The notes under the pieces are model-generated. The model was not told where the DNA came from. It did no database searches and saw only the letters and a list, made by a program, of their open reading frames with translations. The translations under genes and the position numbers were made by a program. 24,000 nt of DNA from an uncultured Desulfurococcaceae archaeon (GTDB lineage: Archaea; Thermoproteota; Thermoprotei_A; Sulfolobales; NBVN01): contig CAZZLT010000018.1 of assembly GCA_964655125.1 (NCBI GenBank), positions 4,126-28,125 on the forward strand, given 5' to 3'. Shown in pieces: positions 1-24,000 of the stretch (the first letter of the stretch is position 1; each line of letters starts with the position of its first letter).

Positions 1-391
1 ATGACTTGAATAGAGAGCTTATCTCTTTAACACTTAGAAACTCTGTCTCTAAATCGATATCCTCATCTCTTTTAATTTTATAGCTATCAGGTTGAATACC
101 ATGTGTTAAAGCCATTGACTTAAATTCTGGTGGAAGTTTATCTATTTGTTCATGTGTTATAGTAACTTCTATCTCATATGGCATAAAAGGACTGGTTTTC
201 GGAGTCCATAGCTTTTCACCAACATCGACTAACTGACCAATATCATTTGCCATCTCATCTATAGCTGCCCATCCACCTTCACTAAATAGAGCCCATACAG
301 CTGGAAACAATATCTTGTTTTCTCTAAACACTAATTCAGAAATCTCTCTAGCAATCTCCAATGCCCTATTAGCAATACTATTAATAGCCAT
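1..391 (-). CDS. 3' part of a split DUF438/hemerythrin/PAS-type sensor gene (last hemerythrin-like helix plus start of a PAS-like region); partial, runs off the window start
   Basis: My own translation of the minus strand from ATG 391..389 gives MAINSIANRALEIAREISELVFRENKILFPAVWALFSEGGWAAIDEMANDIGQLVDVGEKLWTPKTSPFMPYEIEVTITHEQIDKLPPEFKSMALTHGIQPDSYKIKRDEDIDLETEFLSVKEISSLFKS. The frame is open to position 1. It is absent from the track because no stop lies in the window. The ExxxLFP-type helix is typical of HHE hemerythrin domains. Confidence 0.55.
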   Translation of the reverse strand, partial: MAINSIANRALEIAREISELVFRENKILFPAVWALFSEGGWAAIDEMANDIGQLVDVGEKLWTPKTSPFMPYEIEVTITHEQIDKLPPEFKSMALTHGIQPDSYKIKRDEDIDLETEFLSVKEISSLFKS

Positions 392-974
392 TGATCAAAA
401 CGGCTAAAAGCTTAGATATAAACTCGCTAAGTTGTCTCATCTTGACTATAACCTGGTCTTCCCTACCCCACATAACCCTTGGAACAGCAACTATACCTCT
501 TCTCTCAAGATATGGAAATACAAGCATTTGAATTTTTCTATAGTGAAGTCTAAGTCTTCTTAGATTCTGAACTACAGCATTTAAAGCACCTAAAATGTTT
601 TTAGTTTCTTCAACTCCTCTAGACTGGGTTAATGCAGAGGCATAAAGAGCTAAGGCATCAGCTTGTTTCAATATCCATTCATTTTCTCTCATAAGAAAAC
701 CTATTGGATGTCCTTTTGGAACATCTCTTAGCTCTCTAGACTTTAGAAATTCTCTAAAAAGCTCTACATGAAGGTCACAAAGCTTTAGAATATCATCAAT
801 AGATGTACCCTCTCTAACAAGTTGCTGTTCTATAATCGGTATTTCAAAAGGTGAAATCTGTGATAATGTATCGCTAAATCTTCTCTTTATCTCCTCAACA
901 CTTTCACCTCTATGTATATTCTTTAACAGCTCTTTTACTATTCCAATCTTTTTATTCATATCCAAATTTGACAT
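381..974 (-). CDS. DUF438 N-terminal domain plus first three helices of a hemerythrin-like (HHE) cation-binding domain
   Basis: 197-aa track ORF. The N-terminal ~75 aa (..ISPFEIPIIEQQLVREGTSIDDILKLCDLHVELF) looks like DUF438. It is followed by GHPIGFLMRENEWI and LHYRKIQMLVFPYLERRGIVAVPRVMWGREDQV, which are hemerythrin-type helices. The ORF ends inside the domain. Confidence 0.7.
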   Translation of the reverse strand: MSNLDMNKKIGIVKELLKNIHRGESVEEIKRRFSDTLSQISPFEIPIIEQQLVREGTSIDDILKLCDLHVELFREFLKSRELRDVPKGHPIGFLMRENEWILKQADALALYASALTQSRGVEETKNILGALNAVVQNLRRLRLHYRKIQMLVFPYLERRGIVAVPRVMWGREDQVIVKMRQLSEFISKLLAVLINGY

Positions 975-1142
975 GTGTTAAGCACAGAGATTCATATCAC
1001 ATACCAAGATAAAAACTAATCTATATAAATACCAGAAATAGAGTATAAAACACTGTAACATTGTTTTAAATTAAATATGGAGTTCAAAACTATTTTATAT
1101 TAGCTAAGTTTCTATACTGTTTAAAGCTATAAGGTAGGTAAA

Positions 1143-1631
1143 ATGTATGATATAGTTACACATACAGATCTTGACGGTATTGTTGGTGCAGCTACCTATA
1201 TTTTAGGTATAAGGTATTAGAAAAATGAATATTATGTACTGTTTATAGAGCCTATAGAGATTGAAAAGATATGCGATCTTAGTAATAAAAGCTATGAAGC
1301 TATATCGATAATTGATATGGGTGTTAATGTTGATAGTTTAAAGGAGTTGCTGAGGTGTATAGAGGATAACAGTGTTGATGTATATTGGTATGATCATCAT
1401 ATATGGGATTTAGAATGGATTAATGAGTTGTCTAGATATGGTGTAAAGCTATATATAGATTCCAACTCGAAGTGTGCAGCTGATGTAGTTGCTAAGTCAA
1501 TGAATATAGAAAATAGATTGATTAGAGAATATGTTGATGTTATATGTGCTGTAGATTCTTGGAGTTTTTATAGATGGGAGGCACTCTATCTCTATCGATA
1601 TATAGACTATGTAAAGAGGTTCTATGATTAG
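1143..1631 (+). pseudogene. DHH-family phosphoesterase, disrupted (in-frame TAG at 1218-1220; apparently lacks the DHHA1 C-terminal domain)
   Basis: ATG 1143 gives MYDIVTHTDLDGIVGAATYILGIRY, then TAG. The same frame stays open into track ORF 1317..1631. DHH motifs appear in order: DxD (HTDLDG), D (IIDMG), DHH (WYDHHIW). The reading frame stops at 162 codons, just before the GC-rich island. Confidence 0.65.
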
Positions 1632-1651
1632 AGAGAGCATTTATAGATATT

Positions 1652-1909
1652 CTAGGATATGTTTAAGTGTATAGCTGTGTTGCCGCTCTCCACGATCTCT
1701 CTTATGGTAACTATGCGTGGAAGCAAATACTTGCTCACCTCTATCCAGAGGTGGAGACGCTGTAGGTGTCTATAGACGTAGTTCACAAACACAGGCCTCT
1801 CGATAAAGCTGTGCAAGCTGAAGGGAGGGTTGGGCTTTGCGTAGATTACGCCGCTCTCGTTCCACACCCTCCTCACCGCTTCGTACAGCTTGCTGGAGTT
1901 GACATTAAC
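1652..1909 (-). pseudogene. Downstream continuation of the island gene, separated from ORF 1910..2242 by a single in-frame TGA; the 3' end reads out into AT-rich flanking sequence
   Basis: Same frame as 1910..2242 (33 nt = 11 open codons lie between the TGA and the GTG of track ORF 1652..1876). Translation: VNVNSSKLYEAVRRVWNESGVIYAKPNPPFSLHSFIERPVFVNYVYRHLQRLHLWIEVSKYLLPRIVTIREIVESGNTAIHLNIS. No family recognised. Confidence 0.35.
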
Positions 1910-2242
1910 TCAGAACTCGAGGATCTCTCCCTCAGGGTCGCACACTATTCGAACCTCAGTCACCTCGCTAACGCCTAGCCCCTGAGAGAAGTACTTGCCG
2001 TGGTACTCGCTGAACTTGAGCTCGACACCGTTCACGTAAACAGTCCTCGGATAGCTCTTCGCCGGAGCTTCCTGCGTAGCTTCCTCTTCAGGTAGAGGAG
2101 ATGGGGCGCTGTACTCGGGCTCTACCAGCTCTAGAAGCTCCAGTGGTTCTAGAGGGTGAAGATTAGATACGTACAGCACTACCCCTACACCCACTAAGAT
2201 GGCTAGGGCTAAAGCACCTATCTTCAGGTTGGAGCTAGGCAT
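1910..2242 (-). CDS. Small N-terminally membrane-anchored or secreted hypothetical protein (foreign codon usage)
   Basis: 110-aa track ORF with a hydrophobic segment KIGALALAILVGVGVVLYV followed by an acidic, Pro-rich linker. On its own strand a GGGAG Shine-Dalgarno-like motif lies 5-9 nt upstream of the ATG, and TATA-like boxes (ttttaaat, ttttaagtt) lie 30-48 nt upstream. Confidence 0.5.
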   Translation of the reverse strand: MPSSNLKIGALALAILVGVGVVLYVSNLHPLEPLELLELVEPEYSAPSPLPEEEATQEAPAKSYPRTVYVNGVELKFSEYHGKYFSQGLGVSEVTEVRIVCDPEGEILEF

Positions 2243-2364
2243 AGATCTCCCTTCTATACAGGTATCTAAGAACTTAAAACAGATTTAAAAGCTTGCCACT
2301 TGCCAGGTTTCGTTCGCAGGGCAAACTCTTTATTTAGAGTATTATCAAGGCGCTTTACCGAGTT

Positions 2365-2397
2365 TCACGCTCTACGTTTCCCAGATGAAACGCGTGA
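2365..2397 (+). other. Interrupted stem-loop in the tRNA-half upstream region
   Basis: tcacg (2365-2369) pairs with cgtga (2393-2397), and cgtttc (2375-2380) pairs with gaaacg (2387-2392). The loop is ccagat, with a 5-nt bulge ctcta on the 5' side. That gives 11 bp in total. Confidence 0.4.
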
Positions 2398-2407
2398 CGG
2401 ACATAGG

Positions 2408-2463
2408 CAAGCTTTGAGAGCTGGTGGGCGTAGCCCACGCGGGTTCGAATCCCGCCCCCGGCG
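2408..2463 (+). tRNA. Orphan 3' portion of a class II tRNA, most likely tRNA-Ser; no 5' half in the window
   Basis: The T arm is gcggg-ttcgaat-cccgc (2439-2455). The acceptor 3' strand is ccccggc (2456-2462) with discriminator G (2463). A long variable-arm hairpin is formed by gtgggc-gta-gcccac (2424-2438). A possible anticodon arm is caagc/tttgaga/gctgg, with TGA at 2415-2417 and 4 of 5 stem pairs. The required 5' acceptor strand g[ct][ct]gggg occurs nowhere upstream. Confidence 0.6.
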
Positions 2464-2520
2464 TCTTAAACTATTATAGTGAACTCCTTGAAACGTTAGT
2501 TAGGGATACATTTCTAAAAA

Positions 2521-2552
2521 CTTATATATTCTCCGTAGTAAAGTTTTTAATG
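2521..2552 (+). promoter_or_regulatory. Candidate promoter region of the uS13 operon (two TATA-like boxes)
   Basis: cttatatat (2521-2529) lies about 45-50 nt upstream of ATG 2574, and gtttttaa (2543-2550) about 25 nt upstream. A GGTGGGG Shine-Dalgarno-like motif sits at 2562-2568. Which box is used cannot be decided from sequence alone. Confidence 0.35.
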
Positions 2553-2573
2553 CACTATATTGGTGGGGCTGTA

Positions 2574-3023
2574 ATGCCTGAAGCTATGTTTAAGCATATA
2601 GTTAGGGTGGCTGGTACTGATATAGATGGTAATCTTAGACTACCGTATGGTTTATTGAAGATTAAGGGTGTTGGTTATCAGTTAGCAATGCATGTGATTA
2701 GGGTGTTAGGGTTAGACCCTAATTTAAGGGTTGGTTATCTATCTGAGGGTGATGTTAAGAAGATAGAGGCTGTATTAGCTAATTTATTAAGTTATGGTAT
2801 CCCTTCATGGGCTTTAAATAGGAGGAAGGACTACATCACCGGTTTAGACTTACATTTAATAGGTGCTGATTTATTATATGCTGCTAGAGAGGATATTGAG
2901 AGGGAGAAGAGGATTAAGTCTTGGAGAGGTATTAGACATGCTTTAGGGCTTAAGGTTAGAGGCCAGAGGACTCATACAACCGGTAGGATAGGTCCTACAG
3001 TAGGTGTTAGTAAGAAGAAGTGA
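2574..3023 (+). CDS. rps13: 30S ribosomal protein S13 (uS13)
   Basis: MPEAMFKHIVRVAGTDIDGNLRLPYGLLKIKGVGYQLA.. is a typical archaeal uS13 N-terminus. The track ORF start at 2424 reads through the tRNA fragment and is not credible; ATG 2574 (or 2550) is in the same frame. Confidence 0.93.
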   Translation: MPEAMFKHIVRVAGTDIDGNLRLPYGLLKIKGVGYQLAMHVIRVLGLDPNLRVGYLSEGDVKKIEAVLANLLSYGIPSWALNRRKDYITGLDLHLIGADLLYAAREDIEREKRIKSWRGIRHALGLKVRGQRTHTTGRIGPTVGVSKKK

Positions 3024-3029
3024 TGTGTT

Positions 3030-3533
3030 ATGGGTGACCCTAAGAAATCTCGTAAGATTTGGGAGAGGCCTGGACATCCATGGATTAAGGAGAGATTAGT
3101 TAGGGAGATGGAGTTAATAGGTAAGTACGGTCTTAGGAATAAGAAGGAGTTATGGAAAGCTCAAACACTTCTTAGGGAGTTCAGGAGGAGGGCTAAGGCA
3201 CTACTATCACTTCCCCCAGAGTTAAGAGCTACTAGGGAGAGGGAGTTAGTTAGTAAGTTATACCGTCTAGGACTACTGAGTTCTGAGAATGCTGCTGTAG
3301 AGGATATCTTAGCATTAGATGTTGAGAGTGTTTTAGAGAGGAGGTTACAGACGATAGTGTTTAAGAAGGGGTTAGCATTAAGTATTCATCACGCTAGACA
3401 ATTAATAACTCATGGGCATATAGCTATCGGTATACGTAGAGTTACTTCACCTGGTTATTTAGTTAGTAGGGATGAGGAGAACTTAGTCGTGCCTGTTTCA
3501 TCAATTAAACAAAGTATTGTTAGGATTAGGTGA
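3030..3533 (+). CDS. rps4: 30S ribosomal protein S4 (uS4)
   Basis: 167 aa. [18 protein letters not shown].. and the C-terminal S4 RNA-binding domain ([13 protein letters not shown]) are characteristic. It occupies the conserved position after uS13. Confidence 0.95.
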
Positions 3534-3937
3534 TAGGATTGTTCTCAGTGAGGGAGATTAAGTGGGGTATAGCACATATATTCAGTTCATTCAATAATAC
3601 GATAATTACTATAACTGATTTAAGCGGTGCTGAAACATTCTCTAGAGCTTCTGGTGGTATGGCTGTTAAAGCTGATAGGGAGAAACCATCACCTTATACT
3701 GCAATGATGATAGCGTATAAAGTAGCTCAAGAAGCTATGGATAAAGGTATAGGTGCTATACATATTAAGGTTAGAGGTCCGGGTGAGCACGGACCTAAGA
3801 TACCGGGTCCAGGTGCTCAAGCAGCTATAAGAGCTCTAGCTAGGGCTGGATTTATAATTGGTAGGATAGAGGATGTAACCCCTATTCCTCACGATAGTAC
3901 TAGAAGACCTGGCGGTAGGCGTGGACGTAGAGTGTAG
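3530..3937 (+). CDS. rps11: 30S ribosomal protein S11 (uS11)
   Basis: [19 protein letters not shown] and the C-terminal [15 protein letters not shown] are uS11 hallmarks. The GTG start overlaps the rps4 stop. Confidence 0.95.
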
Positions 3938-3946
3938 GTGGATTTA

Positions 3947-4771
3947 ATGAGTTTAAACGTTAATGTTTTAGATAAGGGTAAGAACCATATAAAGTTATTA
4001 TTTGAAGGTGTCTCACTACCCCTACTTAACGCTGTTAGGAGGGTAGCATTAGCTGAGGTCCCTACAATGGCTGTTGATGAGGTAATATTCGTGGATAATA
4101 CATCAGCTCTGTATGATGAGATAATAGCTCATAGATTAGGTATGATACCACTAACCTCAGATGATGCGTTAGAGAAATATAAAATGCCGGAGGATTGTGC
4201 TGAGAGTACTGAGGTTGAGGGTTGTTACACAATCTTAACACTTGATGTATCAGCTAAGGATGAGGTATTAACAGTTTACTCACGTGATCTAATCTCGCAA
4301 GACCCTGACGTTAGACCGGTCTCACCAGATATACCTATAGCTGTGTTAGCACCTGGACAGAGATTAGCTTTTGAGGCTAGGGCTAGGTTAGGTAGAGGTA
4401 AAGAACATATAAAGTGGAGTCCATCTACTGTAGCTACAGTTACTTACTTAGCTAAAGTGAGTTTAAACAGTAGTAGATGTAATTTATGTGGTAAATGTAT
4501 TGAGGTCTGCCCTCGAGGTGTACTTAAGTTAGTGAGGGATGGTATTGAAGTTGATGAGGGTAAATGTATTTTATGTAGGCAGTGTGTTAAGGTATGTGAT
4601 CGTGATGCTATAGACTTAAGCTGGTATGAGGATAAGTACGTACTCTATATTGAGAGTAGTGGTGCGTTAAAACCTGAGAGGATATTATCAGAAGCTCTTA
4701 AAGTAATTATCAATAAACTTCAAATAATTTACAACGAACTTAACAAGTTAGGTAGTGTTGGGGGGAGTTAA
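3947..4771 (+). CDS. rpoD: DNA-directed RNA polymerase subunit D (Rpo3) with a ferredoxin-like Cys-cluster domain
   Basis: LLFEGVSLPLLNAVRRVALAEVPTMAVDEV and YDEIIAHRLGMIPL are conserved subunit D/Rpb3 motifs. CNLCGKCIEVCP and CILCRQCVKVCD form the Fe-S domain known from Sulfolobus RpoD. An alternative GTG start lies at 3938. Confidence 0.93.
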   Translation: MSLNVNVLDKGKNHIKLLFEGVSLPLLNAVRRVALAEVPTMAVDEVIFVDNTSALYDEIIAHRLGMIPLTSDDALEKYKMPEDCAESTEVEGCYTILTLDVSAKDEVLTVYSRDLISQDPDVRPVSPDIPIAVLAPGQRLAFEARARLGRGKEHIKWSPSTVATVTYLAKVSLNSSRCNLCGKCIEVCPRGVLKLVRDGIEVDEGKCILCRQCVKVCDRDAIDLSWYEDKYVLYIESSGALKPERILSEALKVIINKLQIIYNELNKLGSVGGS

Positions 4772-4772
4772 G

Positions 4773-5135
4773 ATGAGACGTACAGGGCCTACAAACATAA
4801 ACTTAAGACTACTGATTAAGGAGTTGAATAAGTACGCTAAGGATTACAACGCACCTATATGGAGTTACGTAGCTGAATTACTCTCTAGACCTGCTAGGAA
4901 ACGTGTAGTAGTTAACTTAAGTAAGTTGAATAGGTATGCTAATGATGGTGATGTTGTAGTAGTACCCGGTAAGGTGTTAGGAGGAGGTAGTCTTACTAAG
5001 AAAATCACATTAGCTACTGTATCAATATCACTACCAGCTCTAGAGAAGGTTAGGGGGTCAGGAAGTAGAGTAATTCATATTAAGGATTTAATCAGGGAAT
5101 TTCCTAAAGGTTCTGGTGTGAAGGTGGTAATATGA
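4773..5135 (+). CDS. rpl18e: 50S ribosomal protein L18e (eL18)
   Basis: MRRTGPTNINLRLLIKEL... is an eL18-type N-terminus. The gene holds the conserved position between rpoD and rpl13. The track start at 4755 is upstream in the same frame. Confidence 0.9.
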   Translation: MRRTGPTNINLRLLIKELNKYAKDYNAPIWSYVAELLSRPARKRVVVNLSKLNRYANDGDVVVVPGKVLGGGSLTKKITLATVSISLPALEKVRGSGSRVIHIKDLIREFPKGSGVKVVI

Positions 5136-5569
5136 GTAATAAGGTATTGGTGATAGATGCTGAAGGTGCTGTATTAGGTAGGTTAGCTACTATAGTAGCT
5201 AAGTCATTACTAGATGGGTATAAAGTCTACATAGTTAACGCTGAGAAAGCTGTTGTGAGTGGTAATCCTCAGATAGTTGTAGAATCGTATAAGATTTGGT
5301 TAGAGATAAAGACGTTAAGGAATCCGTATAAGTGGTCCCCGAAGAGGCCTAGGAACCCCGTAGCTATAGTTAAGAAGGCTGTTAAGGGTATGTTACCTAA
5401 GGATAGTTGGAGAGGTGTTGAAGCATTTAAGAATTTGAAGGTCTATATAGGCTTCCCGGAGGAGTTGAAGAAGTATAACGTTGTTAAAGTAGACTACACA
5501 TCTTCAAGACTTAGTAAAGGATTTATAACAGTTGGTGAGATAGCTAAAATGCTTGGGTGGAAGGGTTGA
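5132..5569 (+). CDS. rpl13: 50S ribosomal protein L13 (uL13)
   Basis: VIDAEGAVLGRLATIVAKSLLDG and AVKGMLPK are uL13 motifs. ATGA overlap with the rpl18e stop. Confidence 0.95.
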   Translation: MSNKVLVIDAEGAVLGRLATIVAKSLLDGYKVYIVNAEKAVVSGNPQIVVESYKIWLEIKTLRNPYKWSPKRPRNPVAIVKKAVKGMLPKDSWRGVEAFKNLKVYIGFPEELKKYNVVKVDYTSSRLSKGFITVGEIAKMLGWKG

Positions 5570-5988
5570 GTACACAGCAACAACAGTTGAAAGTTGTTTT
5601 AGCGTCGTGTAAGAGGAAGACAGCTATTGCTAGGGTAGTAGTTAAACCAGGTAAGGGTAGGGTATGGGTTAACGGTATACCTTTAGAGATATACCCGATA
5701 GAGATGGCTCGTTTAAAGATTATGGAGCCGTTACTACTAGCTGGTGAGTCTATTTGGAAGTCTGTTGATGTTAAGGTTAAAGTCTCTGGTGGTGGTTTTA
5801 TGGCTCAAGCAGATGCTGCTAGGACAGCTATTGCTAGGGCTTTAATACTTTATACAGGTAGTGAGGAGTTAAAACAACGTTTTAAGGAGTATAGTAGGGT
5901 GATGATTGCTGGAGACCCTAGACAGACAGAACCTGAGAAGTGGATGCGTTATAGTGCTAGGAGGTGGAGGCAGAAGTCCTACAGGTGA
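5557..5988 (+). CDS. rps9: 30S ribosomal protein S9 (uS9)
   Basis: GKRKTAIARVVVKPGKGRVWVNG and the C-terminal RRWRQKSYR are uS9 hallmarks. The start is uncertain (GTG 5557 or TTG 5566). Confidence 0.93.
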   Translation: MEGLSTQQQQLKVVLASCKRKTAIARVVVKPGKGRVWVNGIPLEIYPIEMARLKIMEPLLLAGESIWKSVDVKVKVSGGGFMAQADAARTAIARALILYTGSEELKQRFKEYSRVMIAGDPRQTEPEKWMRYSARRWRQKSYR

Positions 5989-5994
5989 TACTTA

Positions 5995-6198
5995 ATGGTT
6001 ATAATACCTGTTAGGTGTTTTACTTGCGGTGCTTTAATAGGTGATAAGTGGAGGGAATTTGCTGAGAGGGTTAGTAAGGGTGAGAACCCGGGTAGGGTAT
6101 TAGATGATTTAGGGATTACTAGGTATTGCTGTAGGAGGATGTTCCTCTCACATGTGGATTTAATAAATGAGATAATTATGTATTCTAGGAAGGTATGA
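5995..6198 (+). CDS. rpoN: DNA-directed RNA polymerase subunit N (Rpo10)
   Basis: 67 aa. [12 protein letters not shown]...YCCRRM is the Rpb10/RpoN zinc-bundle signature. Confidence 0.95.
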
Positions 6199-6860
6199 GT
6201 ATGTATCAGCCGTCTGAGGAGAAGAAGGAGTTTGAGAGAGCGTTAATTACTGAGAAGGGTGCTATAGAACTTCTAGTACCGTTAGATATCTACTTATCAG
6301 CAGGTGTTCATATAGGGACTCACATATGTACTAAGCATATGGAGGGATTCGTATATAGGTTAAGGTCTGACGGACTCTACATACTTAATGTAAAGTTAAT
6401 AGATGAGAGGATTAGAGTAGCTGCTAAGTTCTTATCGAGGTTTAACGTAGGGTCAGTCTTAGCTGTTTCAGCTAGGCAGTACGGGTTTAAACCTGTAGAG
6501 ATGTTTGCACGTCTTACTAATAACAGACATATCATCGGTAGGTTTATACCTGGGACTCTAACTAATCCTAGGTTATCATCTTATGTAGAGGCTGACGTAG
6601 TAGTTGTGACGGATCCTAGAGCTGATGCTCAGGCATTAGTTGAGGCTTCAGAGGTCGGTATCCCAGTAGTCGCTATAGCTAGTACTGATAATAGGTTATC
6701 AGGTGTTGATTTAGTCATACCGGGTAATAATAAGGGTAGGAAGTCTTTAGCAGTTATTTACTGGTTACTAACTAGGCAGGTTTTAAGAGAGAAGGGTATG
6801 ATATCACCTAATGGTGATCTACCGGTAGGTTATGAGGATTTCGAAACTAAGGTGAGTTAA
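6195..6860 (+). CDS. rps2: 30S ribosomal protein S2 (uS2)
   Basis: [33 protein letters not shown] and [11 protein letters not shown] are uS2 motifs. ATGA overlap with the rpoN stop. Confidence 0.95.
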
Positions 6861-7714
6861 TGAAGTTACTTAAGAGGTTACCAGCAGTTGCAGGTTATTT
6901 CTACGAATCTACATCTGATACACTCATTAAAAGGATTAAGTGGTGTTTTACTCATAGTTTAGGTCCTGGGAAACTACCTAGTATGTATGAGGGTAGATTG
7001 AAGGAAAGTATAGGTTATGTCGTACCACATGCTGGTTACATGTATAGTGGTCCAGTAGCAGCACATGTGTACTACAGAATTGCTTTGGAGGGTAAACCAG
7101 ATACATTCGTTATATTAGGTCCTAATCATACGGGTTTAGGTACTGCAGTCTCTATATACGATAAGGGTGTATGGTCAACACCTCTAGGTGATGTTGAGGT
7201 AGATTCAGAATTAGCTTTAGAGATCGTGAGGAGGTCTAATTACGTTGATGTGAATTACGACGCTCATAAATTCGAGCATTCTATAGAGGTTCAACTACCT
7301 TTCCTTCAGTACATCTTCGGTACTTTCAAGTTCGTACCGATAGTATTTGCTTATCAAGTACCTGAGATAGCTAAGGACTTAGCTAACTCCATAGCTAGTG
7401 CTTCTAAGGACTTAGGTAGGGATATAATAGTCTTAGCATCAAGTGATATGACTCACTACGAACCTGATGATAAAGCACGTAAGAAGGATCATGACGTACT
7501 CGAACATATAGTTAGGTTAGACCCTATGAAGGTGTTTGAAGTCGTAACTAAAGAGGATGTAAGTATGTGTGGTGTAGGGCCTGTGCTAACGTTACTTTAC
7601 TACGCTAATAAAGTCGGTGGTAGGAGGGGAGAGGTACTTATGTATGCGACTTCAGGGGATATCACTGGAGAGAAGGATGCTGTAGTTGGTTACGCAGCAG
7701 TTAGAATTCTTTAA
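6860..7714 (+). CDS. MEMO1-family protein (AmmeMemoRadiSam system protein B-like)
   Basis: 284 aa. PAVAGYFY, VVPHAGYMYSGPVAAHVY, ILGPNHTG, EHSIEVQLPFLQ and SSDMTHYE match the MEMO-family pattern. Its ATG overlaps the rps2 stop by 1 nt. Confidence 0.85.
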   Translation: MKLLKRLPAVAGYFYESTSDTLIKRIKWCFTHSLGPGKLPSMYEGRLKESIGYVVPHAGYMYSGPVAAHVYYRIALEGKPDTFVILGPNHTGLGTAVSIYDKGVWSTPLGDVEVDSELALEIVRRSNYVDVNYDAHKFEHSIEVQLPFLQYIFGTFKFVPIVFAYQVPEIAKDLANSIASASKDLGRDIIVLASSDMTHYEPDDKARKKDHDVLEHIVRLDPMKVFEVVTKEDVSMCGVGPVLTLLYYANKVGGRRGEVLMYATSGDITGEKDAVVGYAAVRIL

Positions 7715-7725
7715 CGGTCTCTTCA

Positions 7726-8526
7726 TTGTCTAGAGTTAATGAAGGTGTTAAATTAAGGTCTGTAGTGTATATACCGTTATTCTGTCTCCCACTCCCAAAG
7801 AAACATAACCCGGTAATAGTACTCCCTATAAAAGATTCTAAAATTACAGTAAGTGTTGAGGTATTAAGTAAGCAGGGCTTAGAATTATTAGGTGTTCCTC
7901 AAACAGTAGGTAGATATGTTTATGACTTCTACGAGTTCATACTTAATGAGTTAGGAGTTAATTACGGATTTAGGGTATGTGTTGATGGTGATTACATATA
8001 CGATGGATTCATATACGTAGCTATAACTAATTTAATGATTAAATTACTTAGCGGTAGGTTAAGTAGTGATGAGTATGGATTACTTAGGTTAGTGGATAGT
8101 AGGTTAGGTATTAACGACTGCATCACAGCACTTAGAGAGTATGAAGTAGTTGGTGGGCCTTACATATGGAGATATGATGGTGAGTTACTTAAGTTAACAG
8201 ATGTATCATGTTATGTTAGGGAGATGTTAAGTACTGAGGATATCTCCTTAAGTAGTGTAGTAGGTAATGAAGTACTCACTACACCGTTAACACGTCTAGT
8301 TGGGTTATTAATTATAAGCATATATAACTCATTAGTTGAGAAAGACTATAAATCCTTAAGCAACTATATAAGATTATATAATAGTTTATGGGTAGGTGTT
8401 AGTGGTATTGTTGATGGAATACTTCAAAGCTTTAAACCTACTACTGGTGTTAATTTCTTTACTTATGTTCAAGACTTAGGTAAGGTGACGTTATTTGAGG
8501 TACGATTGGTACTTAAAGGTAGTTAA
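7726..8526 (+). CDS. GHMP-kinase-like protein in the mevalonate kinase slot, with all three kinase motifs degenerate
   Basis: 266 aa. By eye it is collinear with archaeal mevalonate kinases, e.g. GFRVCVDGDYIYDGFIYVAITNLMIKLLSGRLSSDEYGLL against the ..P.G.GLGSSAA.. segment. It has no GLGSSAA-type P-loop, no N-terminal GEHAVV motif and no C-terminal Gly-rich motif. The start is uncertain (TTG 7726 or GTG 7762). Confidence 0.5.
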   Translation: MSRVNEGVKLRSVVYIPLFCLPLPKKHNPVIVLPIKDSKITVSVEVLSKQGLELLGVPQTVGRYVYDFYEFILNELGVNYGFRVCVDGDYIYDGFIYVAITNLMIKLLSGRLSSDEYGLLRLVDSRLGINDCITALREYEVVGGPYIWRYDGELLKLTDVSCYVREMLSTEDISLSSVVGNEVLTTPLTRLVGLLIISIYNSLVEKDYKSLSNYIRLYNSLWVGVSGIVDGILQSFKPTTGVNFFTYVQDLGKVTLFEVRLVLKGS

Positions 8527-9286
8527 GTTAGGTGGTAGTGTAATTACTTTTAAGGATACACCTATGACTATTAGATATGATGTAGTTAAGCAGTTAGTAT
8601 CTGAGTTAGCAGATGTTGTTAATGAATTACCGAGTCTGAAGTTAGTAATAATTCATGGTGGTGGTGGGTTTGGACACTACGTAGTACGTAAGTGTTTAAG
8701 TTCTATCGGTAGGATAGATAGTAAGTGTTTTTCAGAGACTTCATATGCTATGACATTACTGAACACATTATTAATTAAGGAGTTATTAGGAGTTAATTTA
8801 CCAGTAGTTTCAATACCACCGCATACAGTCTTTAAAGCTGAGGCTGATGGGAGGGTTAACTACGATAGAAACTTAATTATTGATTATTTAATGAGAGGGT
8901 TCATACCAGTACTATACGGTGATGTTGTCTTAGGGGTTAACTCATTCATAGTCCTCTCAGGTGATACTATAGCTTGGTTATTAGCTAAAGACTTAAACGC
9001 TCATGAGATTATATTCGTAACAGATGTTGATGGTTTATTCGATAAAGACCCTAAGAAGTATAGTGATGCGAGACTACTAAAGTATGTTAGAGCTGATGAG
9101 TTAAGGAACTTAGAGTTCTCTCAGGGTGAGTATGATGTTACTGGGTCTATGATGTTTAAACTTATGGAGGGGTTAAAACACGGTGTTAAAGGTATTGATG
9201 TTAAGATCGTGAATGGGTTAGTTAAGGGGAACTTATATAAGTCCTTACATGGTAATTCCTCTATAGGTACGGTGATTAAGTATTGA
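8495..9286 (+). CDS. ipk: Isopentenyl phosphate kinase (amino acid kinase family)
   Basis: VVKLGGSVITFK, IIHGGGGFGH, VLSGDTI and FVTDVDGLFDKDP are IPK/AAK motifs. It occupies the conserved position before fni. The TTG start overlaps the upstream gene by 32 nt. Confidence 0.88.
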   Translation: MRYDWYLKVVKLGGSVITFKDTPMTIRYDVVKQLVSELADVVNELPSLKLVIIHGGGGFGHYVVRKCLSSIGRIDSKCFSETSYAMTLLNTLLIKELLGVNLPVVSIPPHTVFKAEADGRVNYDRNLIIDYLMRGFIPVLYGDVVLGVNSFIVLSGDTIAWLLAKDLNAHEIIFVTDVDGLFDKDPKKYSDARLLKYVRADELRNLEFSQGEYDVTGSMMFKLMEGLKHGVKGIDVKIVNGLVKGNLYKSLHGNSSIGTVIKY

Positions 9287-10353
9287 GTTATGAAGGTATT
9301 AATAGGAAGTTAGAACATATAGAAATTGCTTTAAAAGAGGATGTAGAGGGTCCGTTAACAACATGGTTTGAATGTGTATATTTAATACATAGGGCAGCAC
9401 CGGAGTTAGACTTAGATGATGTTGATATATCTACTGAGTTTGTAGGTAGGAGGTTAAGAGCTCCTATAGTAATAAGTGGTATGACTGGAGGAGCTCCTGA
9501 GACTGAGAAGATAAATGCTGAGTTAGCTAAGGTGGCTGAGGTCTTAGGCTTAGGGTTAGGTGTAGGTAGTCAGAGGCAGGCGATTGAAAACGGATCTCTA
9601 AGGAGTACTTACTCTGTAGTAAGGGATTACGCACCAACTACGTTAGTATTAGCTAATATAGGTATATCCGAGTTCATAAGATATGATGTATCATTGATAG
9701 ATAAGATAGTTAGTATGGTTTCTGCTGATGCCTTAGCTGTACATTTAAACGTAGCGCAGGAGTTAGTACAGCCTGAGGGTTCACATAACTTTAAAGGTTT
9801 TCTCAGGAAGTTAGAGGTCATTATGAGGGAGTTATCAGTACCTATAGTTATTAAGGAGGTCGGCTTCGGTATCTCTAAGGAGGTTGCTGAGGAGTTAGTA
9901 GGTATTGGGGTAAGTCATTTCGATGTTGCTGGTGCTGGGGGTACTAACTGGGCTAAAATTGAGATGTTAAGAGCTAGGTATAAGGATGATAAGTTGAAGG
10001 AGAGGTTAGCTCGAGAGTTACTATGTTGGGGTGTCCCTACAGCTGCTTCAATACTTGAGGTTTGGACAGTAGCTCCGAATTCTGAAATAATAGCTAGTGG
10101 TGGTATTAGAAAAGCTTTAGATGTTGTTAAAGCTCTTAGACTAGGGGCTAACGCAGCTGGTTTAGCACTACCCTTACTCAGAGCTTACTACTCAGGTACG
10201 TTAATGGAGTACTTAGACGGGTTAATTAAATCAATTAAAGCTTTATTACTACTCACTGGTTCGAGGAGTATTAATGAGTTAAGGGGTAAACCAATTGTTA
10301 TTTACGACCCACTCAATACTTGGATAACTCAACGCGGTTTAAAAATACCTTAA
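9283..10353 (+). CDS. fni: Type 2 isopentenyl-diphosphate delta-isomerase (FMN-dependent)
   Basis: NRKLEHIEIAL, PIVISGMTGG, VGSQR, FDVAGAGGTNWA and ASGGIR are IDI-2 signatures. Confidence 0.92.
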   Translation: MSYEGINRKLEHIEIALKEDVEGPLTTWFECVYLIHRAAPELDLDDVDISTEFVGRRLRAPIVISGMTGGAPETEKINAELAKVAEVLGLGLGVGSQRQAIENGSLRSTYSVVRDYAPTTLVLANIGISEFIRYDVSLIDKIVSMVSADALAVHLNVAQELVQPEGSHNFKGFLRKLEVIMRELSVPIVIKEVGFGISKEVAEELVGIGVSHFDVAGAGGTNWAKIEMLRARYKDDKLKERLARELLCWGVPTAASILEVWTVAPNSEIIASGGIRKALDVVKALRLGANAAGLALPLLRAYYSGTLMEYLDGLIKSIKALLLLTGSRSINELRGKPIVIYDPLNTWITQRGLKIP

Positions 10354-10376
10354 TAATGTCTTATATAGGTGATTGA

Positions 10377-11375
10377 ATGAGTAGTGAATTACTTAAGTAT
10401 GCTGTTAAGGTGGCTGAGAAGGTTAATACATTATTAGGTGAGGTTGTTAGAGGTGATGAGAAACAACTGTATGACGCGTCATACTACCTCCTTAAAGCTG
10501 GTGGGAAGAGGTTAAGACCTCTACTCACGGTCCTCTCAGCTAGGTTATTCGGACTTAATGAGGATATCTCCATATATCCAGCAACTTCTGTAGAGTTATT
10601 ACATAACTTCACTTTAATTCATGACGATATAATGGATAGGGATGAGTTTAGGAGGGGTATCCCAACAGTTCATAAAGTTTACGGTGAGGCTATGGCTATA
10701 TTAGCTGGTGATCTACTCTTTGCTAAGTCTTTCGAGGTAATGTTTAGATTAGTTGGTATCATCCCTTACGAACGAGTTGTTAAGGCTTTGAGAGAACTTA
10801 CGTGGGCTGCAGTAACTGTTGCTGAGGGTCAAGCACTTGATATGGAGTTTGAAGGTAGGGATGATGTTAGTGTTGATGAGTACTTGAAGATGGTGTTTAA
10901 GAAGACAGCAGCTCTATTTAAAGCATCAGCTTATATAGGTGCGGTTGTAGCTGGTGCTGAGGAGAGTGATTTAGAGAGGATTAGTGAGTTCGCTAAGAGT
11001 ATCGGGATAGCATTTCAGATAAGAGATGATGAGTTAGGATTAATAGGTGATGAGAAGGTATTAGGTAAGCCGGTATTCAGTGATTTAAGGGAGGGTAAGA
11101 AGACTATATTAGTTATTTACGCGTTGGAGAGGGTTAATGATGAGCAACGTAAGTTAATACTTAACGTCCTCGGTAATAGAAATGCTAGTGTTGAGGAGTT
11201 TAGGAGGGTTGCTAATATCATAATTAAATCTGGTGCTCTAGATTACAGTAATAGAGTTGCTGAGGAGTACTTAAGGAAGGGTATGTCTAAACTTGAGGAG
11301 ATAAATACTAAGGATTTAGAGGCTAAGTACTTACTAAAGGAATTTGCTGAGTTCCTAACTAAGAGGTTGTATTAA
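10377..11375 (+). CDS. idsA: Geranylgeranyl diphosphate synthase (short-chain trans-prenyltransferase)
   Basis: GGKRLRP is present. The first Asp-rich motif is IHDDIMDRDEFRRG and the second is FQIRDDELG. KPVFSDLREGKKT resembles the Sulfolobus GGPPS as I recall it. Confidence 0.9.
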   Translation: MSSELLKYAVKVAEKVNTLLGEVVRGDEKQLYDASYYLLKAGGKRLRPLLTVLSARLFGLNEDISIYPATSVELLHNFTLIHDDIMDRDEFRRGIPTVHKVYGEAMAILAGDLLFAKSFEVMFRLVGIIPYERVVKALRELTWAAVTVAEGQALDMEFEGRDDVSVDEYLKMVFKKTAALFKASAYIGAVVAGAEESDLERISEFAKSIGIAFQIRDDELGLIGDEKVLGKPVFSDLREGKKTILVIYALERVNDEQRKLILNVLGNRNASVEEFRRVANIIIKSGALDYSNRVAEEYLRKGMSKLEEINTKDLEAKYLLKEFAEFLTKRLY

Positions 11376-11848
11376 TGGGTTTAACAGCTAAAGTAAGAGA
11401 ATACTTGAAAGACATCACTAACTACTATAAAGGTATTACATGTTATTTAGTTAGTACTACCTCTGTAGAGACTACAACAACAGTGGAGAACATCAACAGT
11501 TTTGAGAAGGTTGAATGTATTGATATAAAGAACTTCATTTCTGGAGGGTTATTAGAGAAGGAGTTAGTCATATGTAATGAGAGGATTAGTAAGTGTATAC
11601 TTGTCCTTAACGGTGCTAAGGTAGATGTTGTAGAGGTTAGAGGTTATGAAGTACTACTACATGTTGATGAAGCGTTAAGTGTTAAGGAAGGTGATGTGTT
11701 AGCTTATATAGTGACTAGTAAGGGTGAGTTAAGGAAGTTTAAATCTGTACGTAGTGGGTATGTAATCCTTATAGAGGAGGTAATCGATAAACCTCAAGGA
11801 TATATGATCTACTTAGCGGATGGTGAGTATGTCAGGGAAGTTAAGTAG
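11375..11848 (+). CDS. Conserved archaeal hypothetical protein with a C-terminal biotinyl/lipoyl-like hybrid-barrel segment (DUF2118-like, tentative)
   Basis: 157 aa. VKEGDVLAYIVTSKGELRKFKSVRSGYVILIEEV has the shape of a single hybrid motif but lacks the modifiable E-x-M-K lysine context. TAATG overlap with idsA and a 29-nt overlap with gltX. Confidence 0.5.
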   Translation: MGLTAKVREYLKDITNYYKGITCYLVSTTSVETTTTVENINSFEKVECIDIKNFISGGLLEKELVICNERISKCILVLNGAKVDVVEVRGYEVLLHVDEALSVKEGDVLAYIVTSKGELRKFKSVRSGYVILIEEVIDKPQGYMIYLADGEYVREVK

Positions 11849-13604
11849 TGAGGTCATGGATGTTATAGTTAAGCTTACTTTGAAAAACGCTATAGAACAT
11901 GATGGTAAGGCATTAGTTAAAGTTGTTTTAAGTAAGTTATTAGGTTCTTTCCCAGAGTTGAGACCTCAGGTTAAGGAGTTAGAGGGTATAGTCTCTGAGG
12001 TAGTATCTCGGATCAACAGTATGAGTTTAGAGGAACAGGTTAGATTAGCTAAGGAGAAATACCCTGAAATCCTCGAGGAGAGGGAGGTCGTACCTAAGGT
12101 TAAGACATTACCACCACTACCTAACGTTGAGAAGTATAAAGAGGTTAGAACTAGATTTGCACCTAATCCTGACTTCCTAATACATCTAGGTAATGCGAGA
12201 CCTGCAATACTTAGTTATGAGTATGCTAGGATGTATAATGGTAAGATGATTTTAAGGTTTGAGGATACTGACCCTAGGACTAAGCAACCTATGCCTGAGG
12301 CATATAGTGCTATTAAGGAGGATTTAAAGTGGTTAGGTATTAGATGGGATGAGGAGTACATACAGTCTCTAAGGATGGAGTTGTACTACTCAGTTGTTAG
12401 GGAGTTGATAGGAGTTGGTGGTGCGTATGTAGACTTATGCGGTAAGGATGAGTTTATGAAGTATAAGATGAGTATGAGACCATGTCCTCACAGGACAGTA
12501 GCTGTTGAAACTAACTTAGAGTTATTGGATAAGATACTCTCTAATTACTTTAAGGAGGGTGAGGCTGTGATTAGGATTAAGACAGACCTCTCACATCCAG
12601 ACCCTTCAGTTAGGGATTGGGTAGCTTTTAGGATTGTAGATACTGATAAGAATCCACACCCTATAGTAGGTTCTAAGTATATCTTATGGCCTACGTATAA
12701 TTACGCTGCAGGTGTTGACGACCATTTAATGGGTATAACACATATCCTTCGTGGGAAGGAACATATGGTAAATACTTTAAAACAGAGATATCTCTACGAA
12801 CACTTAGGTTGGGTTTATCCAGAGGTAATTAACTTAGGTAGGCTTAGGTTGGAGGGGTTTATATTAAGTAAGTCTAAGATTAAAGAACTTCTGAGGAAGT
12901 TTCCTAAGAAGTTTAAATCCATAGATGATGTTAGGTTTGGGACTATAGCATCTCTGAGGAGGAGAGGTATTATCCCTGAAACTATAAGGAAGGTGATATT
13001 AGAAGTTGGTGTTAAGGTAAGTGATGCATCGATTAGTTGGGAGAATATAGCTGCTATTAATAGGAAACTCATAGACCCTATTACGAAGAGATTAATGTTT
13101 GTAAGTCATCCACCAGTAAAAGTACTCATACGTTCAGTACCTTCAAGTCTTACTAAAGTGTCAATACCTCTCCACCCAACTAATAAGTCATTAGGTAGTA
13201 GAGAGATAACGTTAGATGTTGTTGATGGTTATACACCAGTTCTACTTGATAAATCAGATGTTGATCTACTTAGGAGTATAGGTTATATTAGGTTGATGGA
13301 GTTCATGAATATTAGATATGTTAGTGATAGTGTTGAAGGGGTAATAACCGAGTTTGTAAGTACGGAGTTAAGTGATGCTAAGAAGGTTAAGGCACCTATA
13401 GTTCATTGGGTACCCTATAGTAGGAATACGAAGGTAGTTATTATAAGACCTAAAGACCTTAACTTACTTAAGATTAGAGGTTATGGTGAGGAGTACTTGA
13501 GGACTATTAAGGTTGGTGAGGTAGTACAGTTAGTAAGGTATGGTTTTGTTAAGGTTGATAACGTTAGAGGAGATGTTGTAGAATTAGTATTTATTCATGA
13601 GTAG
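11820..13604 (+). CDS. gltX: Glutamyl-tRNA synthetase (archaeal/eukaryotic type)
   Basis: RFAPNPDFLIHLGNAR is the HIGH motif and ILSKSK is the KMSKS-like motif. THILRGKEH is also present. The N-terminal helical extension is as in crenarchaeal GluRS. Confidence 0.93.
   Translation: MVSMSGKLSSEVMDVIVKLTLKNAIEHDGKALVKVVLSKLLGSFPELRPQVKELEGIVSEVVSRINSMSLEEQVRLAKEKYPEILEEREVVPKVKTLPPLPNVEKYKEVRTRFAPNPDFLIHLGNARPAILSYEYARMYNGKMILRFEDTDPRTKQPMPEAYSAIKEDLKWLGIRWDEEYIQSLRMELYYSVVRELIGVGGAYVDLCGKDEFMKYKMSMRPCPHRTVAVETNLELLDKILSNYFKEGEAVIRIKTDLSHPDPSVRDWVAFRIVDTDKNPHPIVGSKYILWPTYNYAAGVDDHLMGITHILRGKEHMVNTLKQRYLYEHLGWVYPEVINLGRLRLEGFILSKSKIKELLRKFPKKFKSIDDVRFGTIASLRRRGIIPETIRKVILEVGVKVSDASISWENIAAINRKLIDPITKRLMFVSHPPVKVLIRSVPSSLTKVSIPLHPTNKSLGSREITLDVVDGYTPVLLDKSDVDLLRSIGYIRLMEFMNIRYVSDSVEGVITEFVSTELSDAKKVKAPIVHWVPYSRNTKVVIIRPKDLNLLKIRGYGEEYLRTIKVGEVVQLVRYGFVKVDNVRGDVVELVFIHE

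Positions 13605-21975: not shown

Positions 21976-24000
<2,025 letters not shown>

Follow-up and report, generated by a model that had tools for sequence, protein, structure and literature searches.

Directly upstream of the gene for ribosomal protein S13 in an uncultured Desulfurococcaceae archaeon lies what reads as the 3′ half of a tRNA-Ser gene with no 5′ half in front of it, and the question raised by this locus is whether such a piece is a working part of a split tRNA gene, the scar of an insertion, or an artefact of assembly. The stretch of DNA that was analysed, hereafter the window, is 24,000 nucleotides long, and the features that frame the question are these:

2408..2463, plus strand: partial copy of a tRNA-Ser(UGA) gene, Sprinzl positions 27-73, defined from the sequence and by alignment with the intact genes in contigs L001, L300 and L136.
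2408-2412 with 2420-2424, plus strand: anticodon stem, CAAGC/GCTGG, with one A-G mismatch.
2413-2419, plus strand: anticodon loop, with TGA at 2415-2417.
2426-2436, plus strand: variable arm of class II type, read from the sequence.
2439-2455, plus strand: perfect T arm, GCGGG TTCGAAT CCCGC.
2456-2462, plus strand: acceptor 3′ strand, followed by discriminator G at 2463.
2464..2573, plus strand: native spacer that separates the tRNA from S13, its sequence being the same whether or not a strain has the insertion.
2574..3023, plus strand: ribosomal protein S13 gene, first of the S13-S4-S11-RpoD operon, its likely true product being 149 aa.

Written in structural blocks, the fragment reads CAAGC TTTGAGA GCTGG T GGGC GTA GCCC ACG GCGGG TTCGAAT CCCGC CCCCGGC G. 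The original prediction had placed a T arm, an acceptor 3′ strand, a discriminator G and a long variable arm here and had allowed for an anticodon arm with TGA; all of these are present, the last with its single mismatch. It had also held that the 5′ acceptor strand and the D arm are missing, as indeed they are: the pattern G[CT][CT]GGGG does not occur on the plus strand of intergenic 2243-2410, and the sole match near the fragment is its own acceptor 3′ strand read on the minus strand. Candidate 5′ acceptor strands elsewhere in the window were rejected as chance matches, found in coding regions only, and no repeat within the window touches 2340-2420. (Two direct repeats of ~250 nt at 22571-24000, 71-76% identical and spaced by 822-825 nt, correspond to the paired AAA+ domains of a CDC48/VCP-type ATPase gene that continues beyond the end of the window.) ARAGORN called zero tRNA genes across the whole 24-kb window and Rfam at its gathering score gave zero tRNA matches anywhere in it, such that a complete tRNA spanning the locus, named at the outset as the finding that would count against the prediction, was called by neither; permissive Rfam thresholds returned only the T arm and a tRNA-like 3′ part, both sub-threshold. 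The fragment fails as a canonical class II tRNA-Ser, there being no complete cloverleaf under any tRNA model that was run.

The fragment also touches the annotation of its neighbour. The S13 reading frame stays open upstream as far as a GTG at 2424, inside the fragment, and some gene callers extend S13 accordingly; users should be warned that one pipeline's 199-aa call (1357-1956 of contig L007) begins there, within the tRNA-like sequence. A 157-aa S13 call has its start downstream of the fragment.

What belongs at this position was established from hot-spring metagenomic contigs (Great Boiling Spring enrichments and others) that encode an S4 identical to that of the window. Five of them (L001-L004 and L009) share 99.93-99.95% identity with window positions 2411-13533, and these five together with L299 present an empty site, that is, cbf5, an intact 84-nt tRNA-Ser(UGA) and S13. 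Upstream, the empty-site contigs run through the ribosomal-protein/SecY cluster and cbf5 into the intact tRNA at exactly the place of the fragment, and the window sequence to the left of ~2406 is unrelated to theirs. The resemblance of the fragment to tRNA-Ser is not a matter of chance: position by position, it can be aligned with the intact tRNA-Ser(UGA) that these sister contigs carry at the same site. The intact gene stands at this place in more distant relatives as well (L136, which is the MAG Desulfurococcaceae Bin S28, L139 and L005): Bin S28, a GTDB MAG with 91% nucleotide identity, has cbf5, intact tRNA-Ser(UGA) and S13 in that order, and in a genome search with Cbf5, which did not return the species itself, the nearest match was a Desulfurococcaceae MAG with 93% amino-acid identity and the intact arrangement. 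The statement in the original prediction that a tRNA-Ser natively precedes S13 is borne out by the empty-site contigs and by these relatives, Bin S28 included, and the comparison indicates that the ancestral state is an intact tRNA-Ser(UGA) between cbf5 and the S13 operon in this Ignisphaera-like crenarchaeon. In L005 (97.7% identical), the intact tRNA-Ser(UGA) at 9300-9434 comes right after cytidylate kinase with no L14e or cbf5 between them, and the upstream side of this tRNA gene has been repeatedly rearranged among relatives.

The differences between the fragment and the intact gene are at 2409, 2410, 2413, 2422 and 2430, all of them to the left of one block:

2431..2463, plus strand: 33 bp, TAGCCCACGCGGGTTCGAATCCCGCCCCCGGCG, shared without a mismatch with the intact tRNA-Ser(UGA) of the empty site and of the left junction.

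Set beside the empty-site contigs, the window shows clustered differences at 2413, 2422 and 2430 (a substitution with a 1-nt gap), and just 2-4 more follow beyond 2430 over 11.1 kb. Four differences in 20 nt, set against about three per 11 kb, fit a sequence of other origin lying to the left of a crossover and not drift, and the 33-bp block would be the candidate for the crossover or core region. The variants carried by the fragment are A28, A29, T32, T41 and the GTA variable loop. The double change A29:T41 preserves an anticodon-stem pair and A28 disrupts one; the GTA loop is shared with the tRNA of Bin S28 and is therefore a natural allele, not decay.

The counterpart of the fragment was traced through the exact Cbf5 of the empty-site contigs. 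Contig L300 (ENA ERZ27289261 k141_52112, 38.7 kb) runs through cbf5 and an intact tRNA-Ser(UGA) and then into the left-hand end of the inserted segment (hereafter the island), ctgtccatatagctgaccc..., with a 99.5% match to contig L174 over 553 nt. The assembly that yielded L300 also yielded a window-type contig, L007, identical to the window across 2300-2520, and L174 and L013/L014 connect the left end of the island to its right end; in L174, 5,782 nt separate the 3′ end of the left tRNA copy from window position 2463. All comparators are metagenomic contigs; what ties the left junction to the right one is a sample in common and contig L174, and no closed genome. The other end of k141_52112 carries S10, an intact tRNA-Ser(GGA) and cdvABC, and the two intact genes are placed as follows:

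L300 10907-10991: intact tRNA-Ser(UGA), with the same promoter as in the empty-site contigs and followed by the left end of the island.
L318 5384-5469: intact tRNA-Ser(GGA), on the same contig k141_52112.

Reconstructed from these sequences, the occupied structure is cbf5, intact tRNA, 5.8-kb insert, partial tRNA and S13. The features of an att-type duplication are present, namely an intact tRNA with its original promoter, a partial 3′ copy in direct orientation and a precise empty site. With intact UGA and GGA genes on one contig, the window fragment is redundant, and therefore no tRNA-Ser isoacceptor is missing. The original prediction had proposed looking for a full tRNA-Ser with an identical 3′ segment of ~55 nt; the intact gene was found, and the identity spans 33 nt. 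The intact tRNA-Ser(GGA) and tRNA-Ser(UGA) of this organism differ from one another solely at anticodon position 34, and in direct orientation they bracket the cdvABC-to-cbf5 region at a distance of ~32.5 kb, as long identical repeats able to mislead assemblers or to recombine.

The window holds the right part of the island, which consists of the following:

1..1651: right part of the island cargo, decayed copies of cellular genes recognised with Pfam.
381-974, minus strand: DUF438/hemerythrin gene, separated from its PAS domain.
1317-1631, plus strand: DHH phosphoesterase fragment, from Pfam.
1652..2242, minus strand: ORFan gene of a GC-rich end module, broken into ORFs of 110 aa and 74 aa and present as a single 196-aa ORF in L174.
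2306..2407, plus strand: arm of conserved noncoding sequence ("leader"), forming the right end of the island and recognised by comparison with L174/L311.
2329-2336, plus strand: TATA-like TTTATTTA, within the arm.
2338-2351, plus strand: invariant GAGTATTATCAAGG, within the arm.
2359-2367 and 2386-2394, plus strand: inverted-repeat arms AGTTTCA...TGAAAC, within the noncoding arm.

A chromosomal block of a related organism matches ~4.8 kb of the island body at 90-91% identity; this block encodes MgtE, an FprA flavoprotein, a 133-aa protein, a fused DUF438-hemerythrin-PAS protein and a DHH phosphoesterase. In the island these genes are decayed, with only pieces left of MgtE and DHH and with DUF438 detached from PAS, whereas relatives have a fused protein of 441 aa. 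One protein of the FprA cluster is labelled Ignisphaera aggregans in one source, and no sample other than the few with a window-type junction yielded the island proteins. The GC content is 0.33 in the island body and 0.49-0.51 in the end module, compared with 0.38 in the flank and ~0.38-0.40 in the genome. The last 750 nt of the island, made up of the ORFan gene and ~100 nt of noncoding sequence, are unlike the body. The ORFan of the window is frameshifted relative to the 196-aa ORF of L174, and the single homologue found for the latter (73% identity, unannotated, from other samples) again adjoins the start of the noncoding arm.

The arm is not confined to this junction. Window 2306-2412 is 69% identical, over 107 ungapped nucleotides, to the sequence that precedes a second partial tRNA-Ser:

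L174 5868-6026, minus strand, and L311 ~265-425: second unit, a related arm of ~100 nt plus a partial tRNA-Ser with anticodon GGA.

The second unit lies 5.8 kb to the left of the window fragment in the same orientation, with an unannotated 92-aa ORF before it, and its partial copy begins at the same tRNA position as the window fragment (~27-30). In L174 and, independently, in L311, the left edge of the island is this second partial copy and not an intact tRNA; the available contigs end ~275 nt to the left of the 92-aa ORF, and the window's own 28-kb contig is probably of this type, with a second partial GGA copy at the left edge of the island. The arm does not appear to code for protein, with stops in all six frames of both units, no shared peptide, and substitutions distributed 14/11/8 by codon position with no periodicity; Rfam returned nothing for it, and its hairpin has two covarying pairs among three sequences. 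A 65-nt homologue of the middle of the arm, ~70-72% identical and including AGTTTCA...TGAAAC, occurs on the minus strand at 5089-5154 of L047, a contig of another species, where it is intergenic, has no tRNA-like part and lies 3.2 kb from an intact tRNA-Ser(UGA).

It is probable, on the comparisons above, that the fragment is the redundant distal, attR-like direct repeat left by the insertion of ~5.8 kb into the 3′ part of tRNA-Ser(UGA). The two junctions, the empty site and the redundancy are observed; that an integrase acted, and that the change was an insertion and not a deletion, is what we infer from them. The segment would have entered the 3′ part of the gene between cbf5 and the S13 operon, such that the intact tRNA, with its promoter, would remain beside cbf5 at the left edge; this edge lies ~5.8 kb upstream of 2463, which puts it beyond the window. 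Two parts would then make up the fragment, the first a tRNA-like arm brought by the island itself (the anticodon arm with the variable loop and their variants) and the second the last 33 nt of the host gene with its native downstream flank. The most likely agent would be a site-specific tyrosine recombinase acting on an attP that mimics the 3′ part of tRNA-Ser, with a crossover inside the 33-bp identical block, which would leave an anticodon arm and variable loop derived from attP; later, the element would have lost its integrase and its cargo would have decayed. The paired A29/T41 change suits the dyad symmetry of a recombination site as well as it suits RNA pairing. Archaeal integrases prefer the 3′ part of tRNA genes, the 5′ limits being variable, and an intact tRNA is reconstituted (PMC8371274).

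As for the integrase itself, the suggestion that the fragment is a leftover att copy is supported in its essentials by the empty site and by the intact tRNA ~5.8 kb to the left, beyond the window, and loses its proposed SSV-type or pNOB8-type integrase, none having been found. Pfam gave no integrase domain or mobile-element protein among the called genes of L013, L014, L174 and L305; no frame of an SSV-type partitioned integrase passes through the repeat in any of the six frames of either unit; the small ORFs of the island have no Pfam or PHROG match; BLAST of phages and plasmids with the island gave no match; and IMG/VR scans with 14-nt, 19-nt and 22-nt patterns gave chance matches only. That the island body resembles a chromosomal gene block (~90%) and matches no known virus or plasmid counts against the insertion of a mobile element. 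With no integrase, the island is therefore either a degenerate remnant or the product of integrase-free recombination.

The second of these routes is unlikely in our judgement. It holds that the identical anatomy arose by homologous or illegitimate recombination between tRNA-Ser-like sequences, for example when a circular DNA carrying a tRNA-Ser fragment recombined with the chromosomal gene, and that empty-site strains arise through recombination between the two 33-bp repeats. An island with no integrase, whose cargo is a decayed copy of ordinary chromosomal genes from a related organism, speaks for it; tRNA-Ser(UGA) and tRNA-Ser(GGA), differing at one base, offer long identical substrates, and the differing upstream contexts of the tRNA among relatives (as in L005) are in keeping with it. 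However, the same arm meets the tRNA-like part at tRNA position ~27-30 in two separate units, and a diverged third copy of it again accompanies the ORFan, which looks like the conserved end of a site-specific element, and 33 bp is short for efficient homologous recombination. Our own reading of these comparisons is that the arm may be the conserved end of an element family whose members recombine with tRNA-Ser genes in their 3′ part and may be integrated in tandem.

A different view of the arm is that, together with the tRNA 3′ part, it could form a transcription unit, with its own TATA-like box and structured leader, carried on elements that target tRNA-Ser; we think this improbable. Less probable still is that the fragment serves as a functional 3′ half with its own promoter and leader, trans-spliced to a remote 5′ half as in Nanoarchaeum, Caldivirga and Staphylothermus. 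The similarity to the intact gene starts at ~30/31, and the tRNA-Lys(CUU) of Staphylothermus and of Nanoarchaeum equitans is split at 30/31 as well (PMC3218864); upstream of the fragment there is a conserved TATA-like box; A29:T41 retains an anticodon-stem pair; and there are two units with different anticodons and one leader family, the 5′ part being common to all Ser isoacceptors. Against this stand the intact UGA and GGA tRNA-Ser genes on one contig that ends in the left junction of the island, the stem pair broken by A28, and a bulge-helix-bulge modelled with the normal 5′ part and read by eye, whose central helix has 3/4 pairs in the window unit and 2/4 in the second. Moreover, a trailer complementary to the leader was sought in the window, L001, L003, L004, L006, L174, L298 and L300, amounting to ~150 kb of this organism, and only self matches were found. 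A metagenome scan with the 27-nt 5′ part gave at least 120 matches, those listed all being intact tRNA-Ser genes from many species; since this 5′ part is common to every Ser isoacceptor, such a scan says nothing about the window-type strain. The split tRNA gene offered by the original prediction as its second explanation is not supported, both genes being intact on the left-junction contig and no trailer having been found in the ~150 kb covered.

Least credible of all is that the junction is an assembly chimera at conserved tRNA sequence: metagenome assemblers do mis-thread at tRNA repeats, with L298/L316 as a probable example, but three independent assemblies, produced by two pipelines, agree in every base of window 2300-2520, the private variants of the fragment occur nowhere else, and at 54 nt the fragment falls far below the k of 141 with which assembly of the ENA contigs ended. 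The example just named (Logan SRR7539307_19) joins cbf5, tRNA-Ser(GGA) and cdvA, and its 32,790 nt equal the spacing of the two tRNA-Ser genes; given this match in length it was rejected as a real rearrangement and judged a probable k=31 artefact, a circularised inter-repeat segment, a real circle or tandem-duplication junction being less likely.

If the fragment is, as we favour, the distal repeat of an insertion, several known systems are available for comparison. Integrative elements in Sulfolobus and Aeropyrum, described by She et al., are reportedly bounded by att repeats derived from tRNA genes. Like archaeal elements of this kind, the island has an intact tRNA at one edge, a direct 3′ partial copy at the other and a precise empty site, its cargo is strain-specific and atypical in composition, and its repeat reaches the anticodon arm imperfectly. 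Unlike them, it has neither a whole nor a partitioned integrase gene, its cargo consists of decayed cellular genes and not viral or plasmid ones, and its tRNA-like part is adjoined by a conserved noncoding arm of ~100 nt that contains a hairpin and a promoter-like box.

Two further cases come from work on disrupted and split tRNA genes. In a natural Caldiarchaeum population a mobile element disrupts a tRNA gene (Sugahara et al. 2012; PMC3293823), and this has been proposed as a route to split tRNA genes (PMC3293823). The present locus shares with that case the heterogeneity of a population at one tRNA locus, seen in community DNA, and an insert that parts a fragment from a full gene. In Caldiarchaeum, however, there is a 5′ fragment, a 1.8-kb insert encoding a recombinase and a gain of introns (PMC3293823), whereas here there is a 3′ fragment, a 5.8-kb insert with no recombinase and no intron. 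The recently split tRNA genes of Desulfurococcales (Chan, Cozen and Lowe 2011; PMC3218864) belong to the same order and likewise show a 3′ fragment from position ~30 on, with nothing upstream and the partner a few kb away. They nevertheless have no intact isoacceptor copy and possess a 5′ half with a complementary trailer (PMC3218864), whereas for the window locus there is an intact copy, and the search for a trailer in ~150 kb gave none. Aeropyrum and Thermosphaera have partial tRNA fragments too, which have been ascribed to integrations or rearrangements (PMC3218864).

Overall, the fragment is probably a scar of a well-known type and is not to be annotated as a split tRNA. What the locus does provide is a clean natural pair of occupied and empty sites in near-identical strains. 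Insertions into tRNA genes leave 3′ tRNA pieces beside foreign promoter-like sequence, and such pieces are the raw material in models for the origin of split tRNAs in Desulfurococcales. Should the arm and the tRNA 3′ part prove to be a transcription unit, the product might alternatively be a small RNA resembling a tRNA half and used by the element; otherwise, the unit would supply a ready-made, promoter-bearing and expressible 3′ half alongside the intact gene, and these strains would be a snapshot of the moment just before the fixation of a split tRNA gene.
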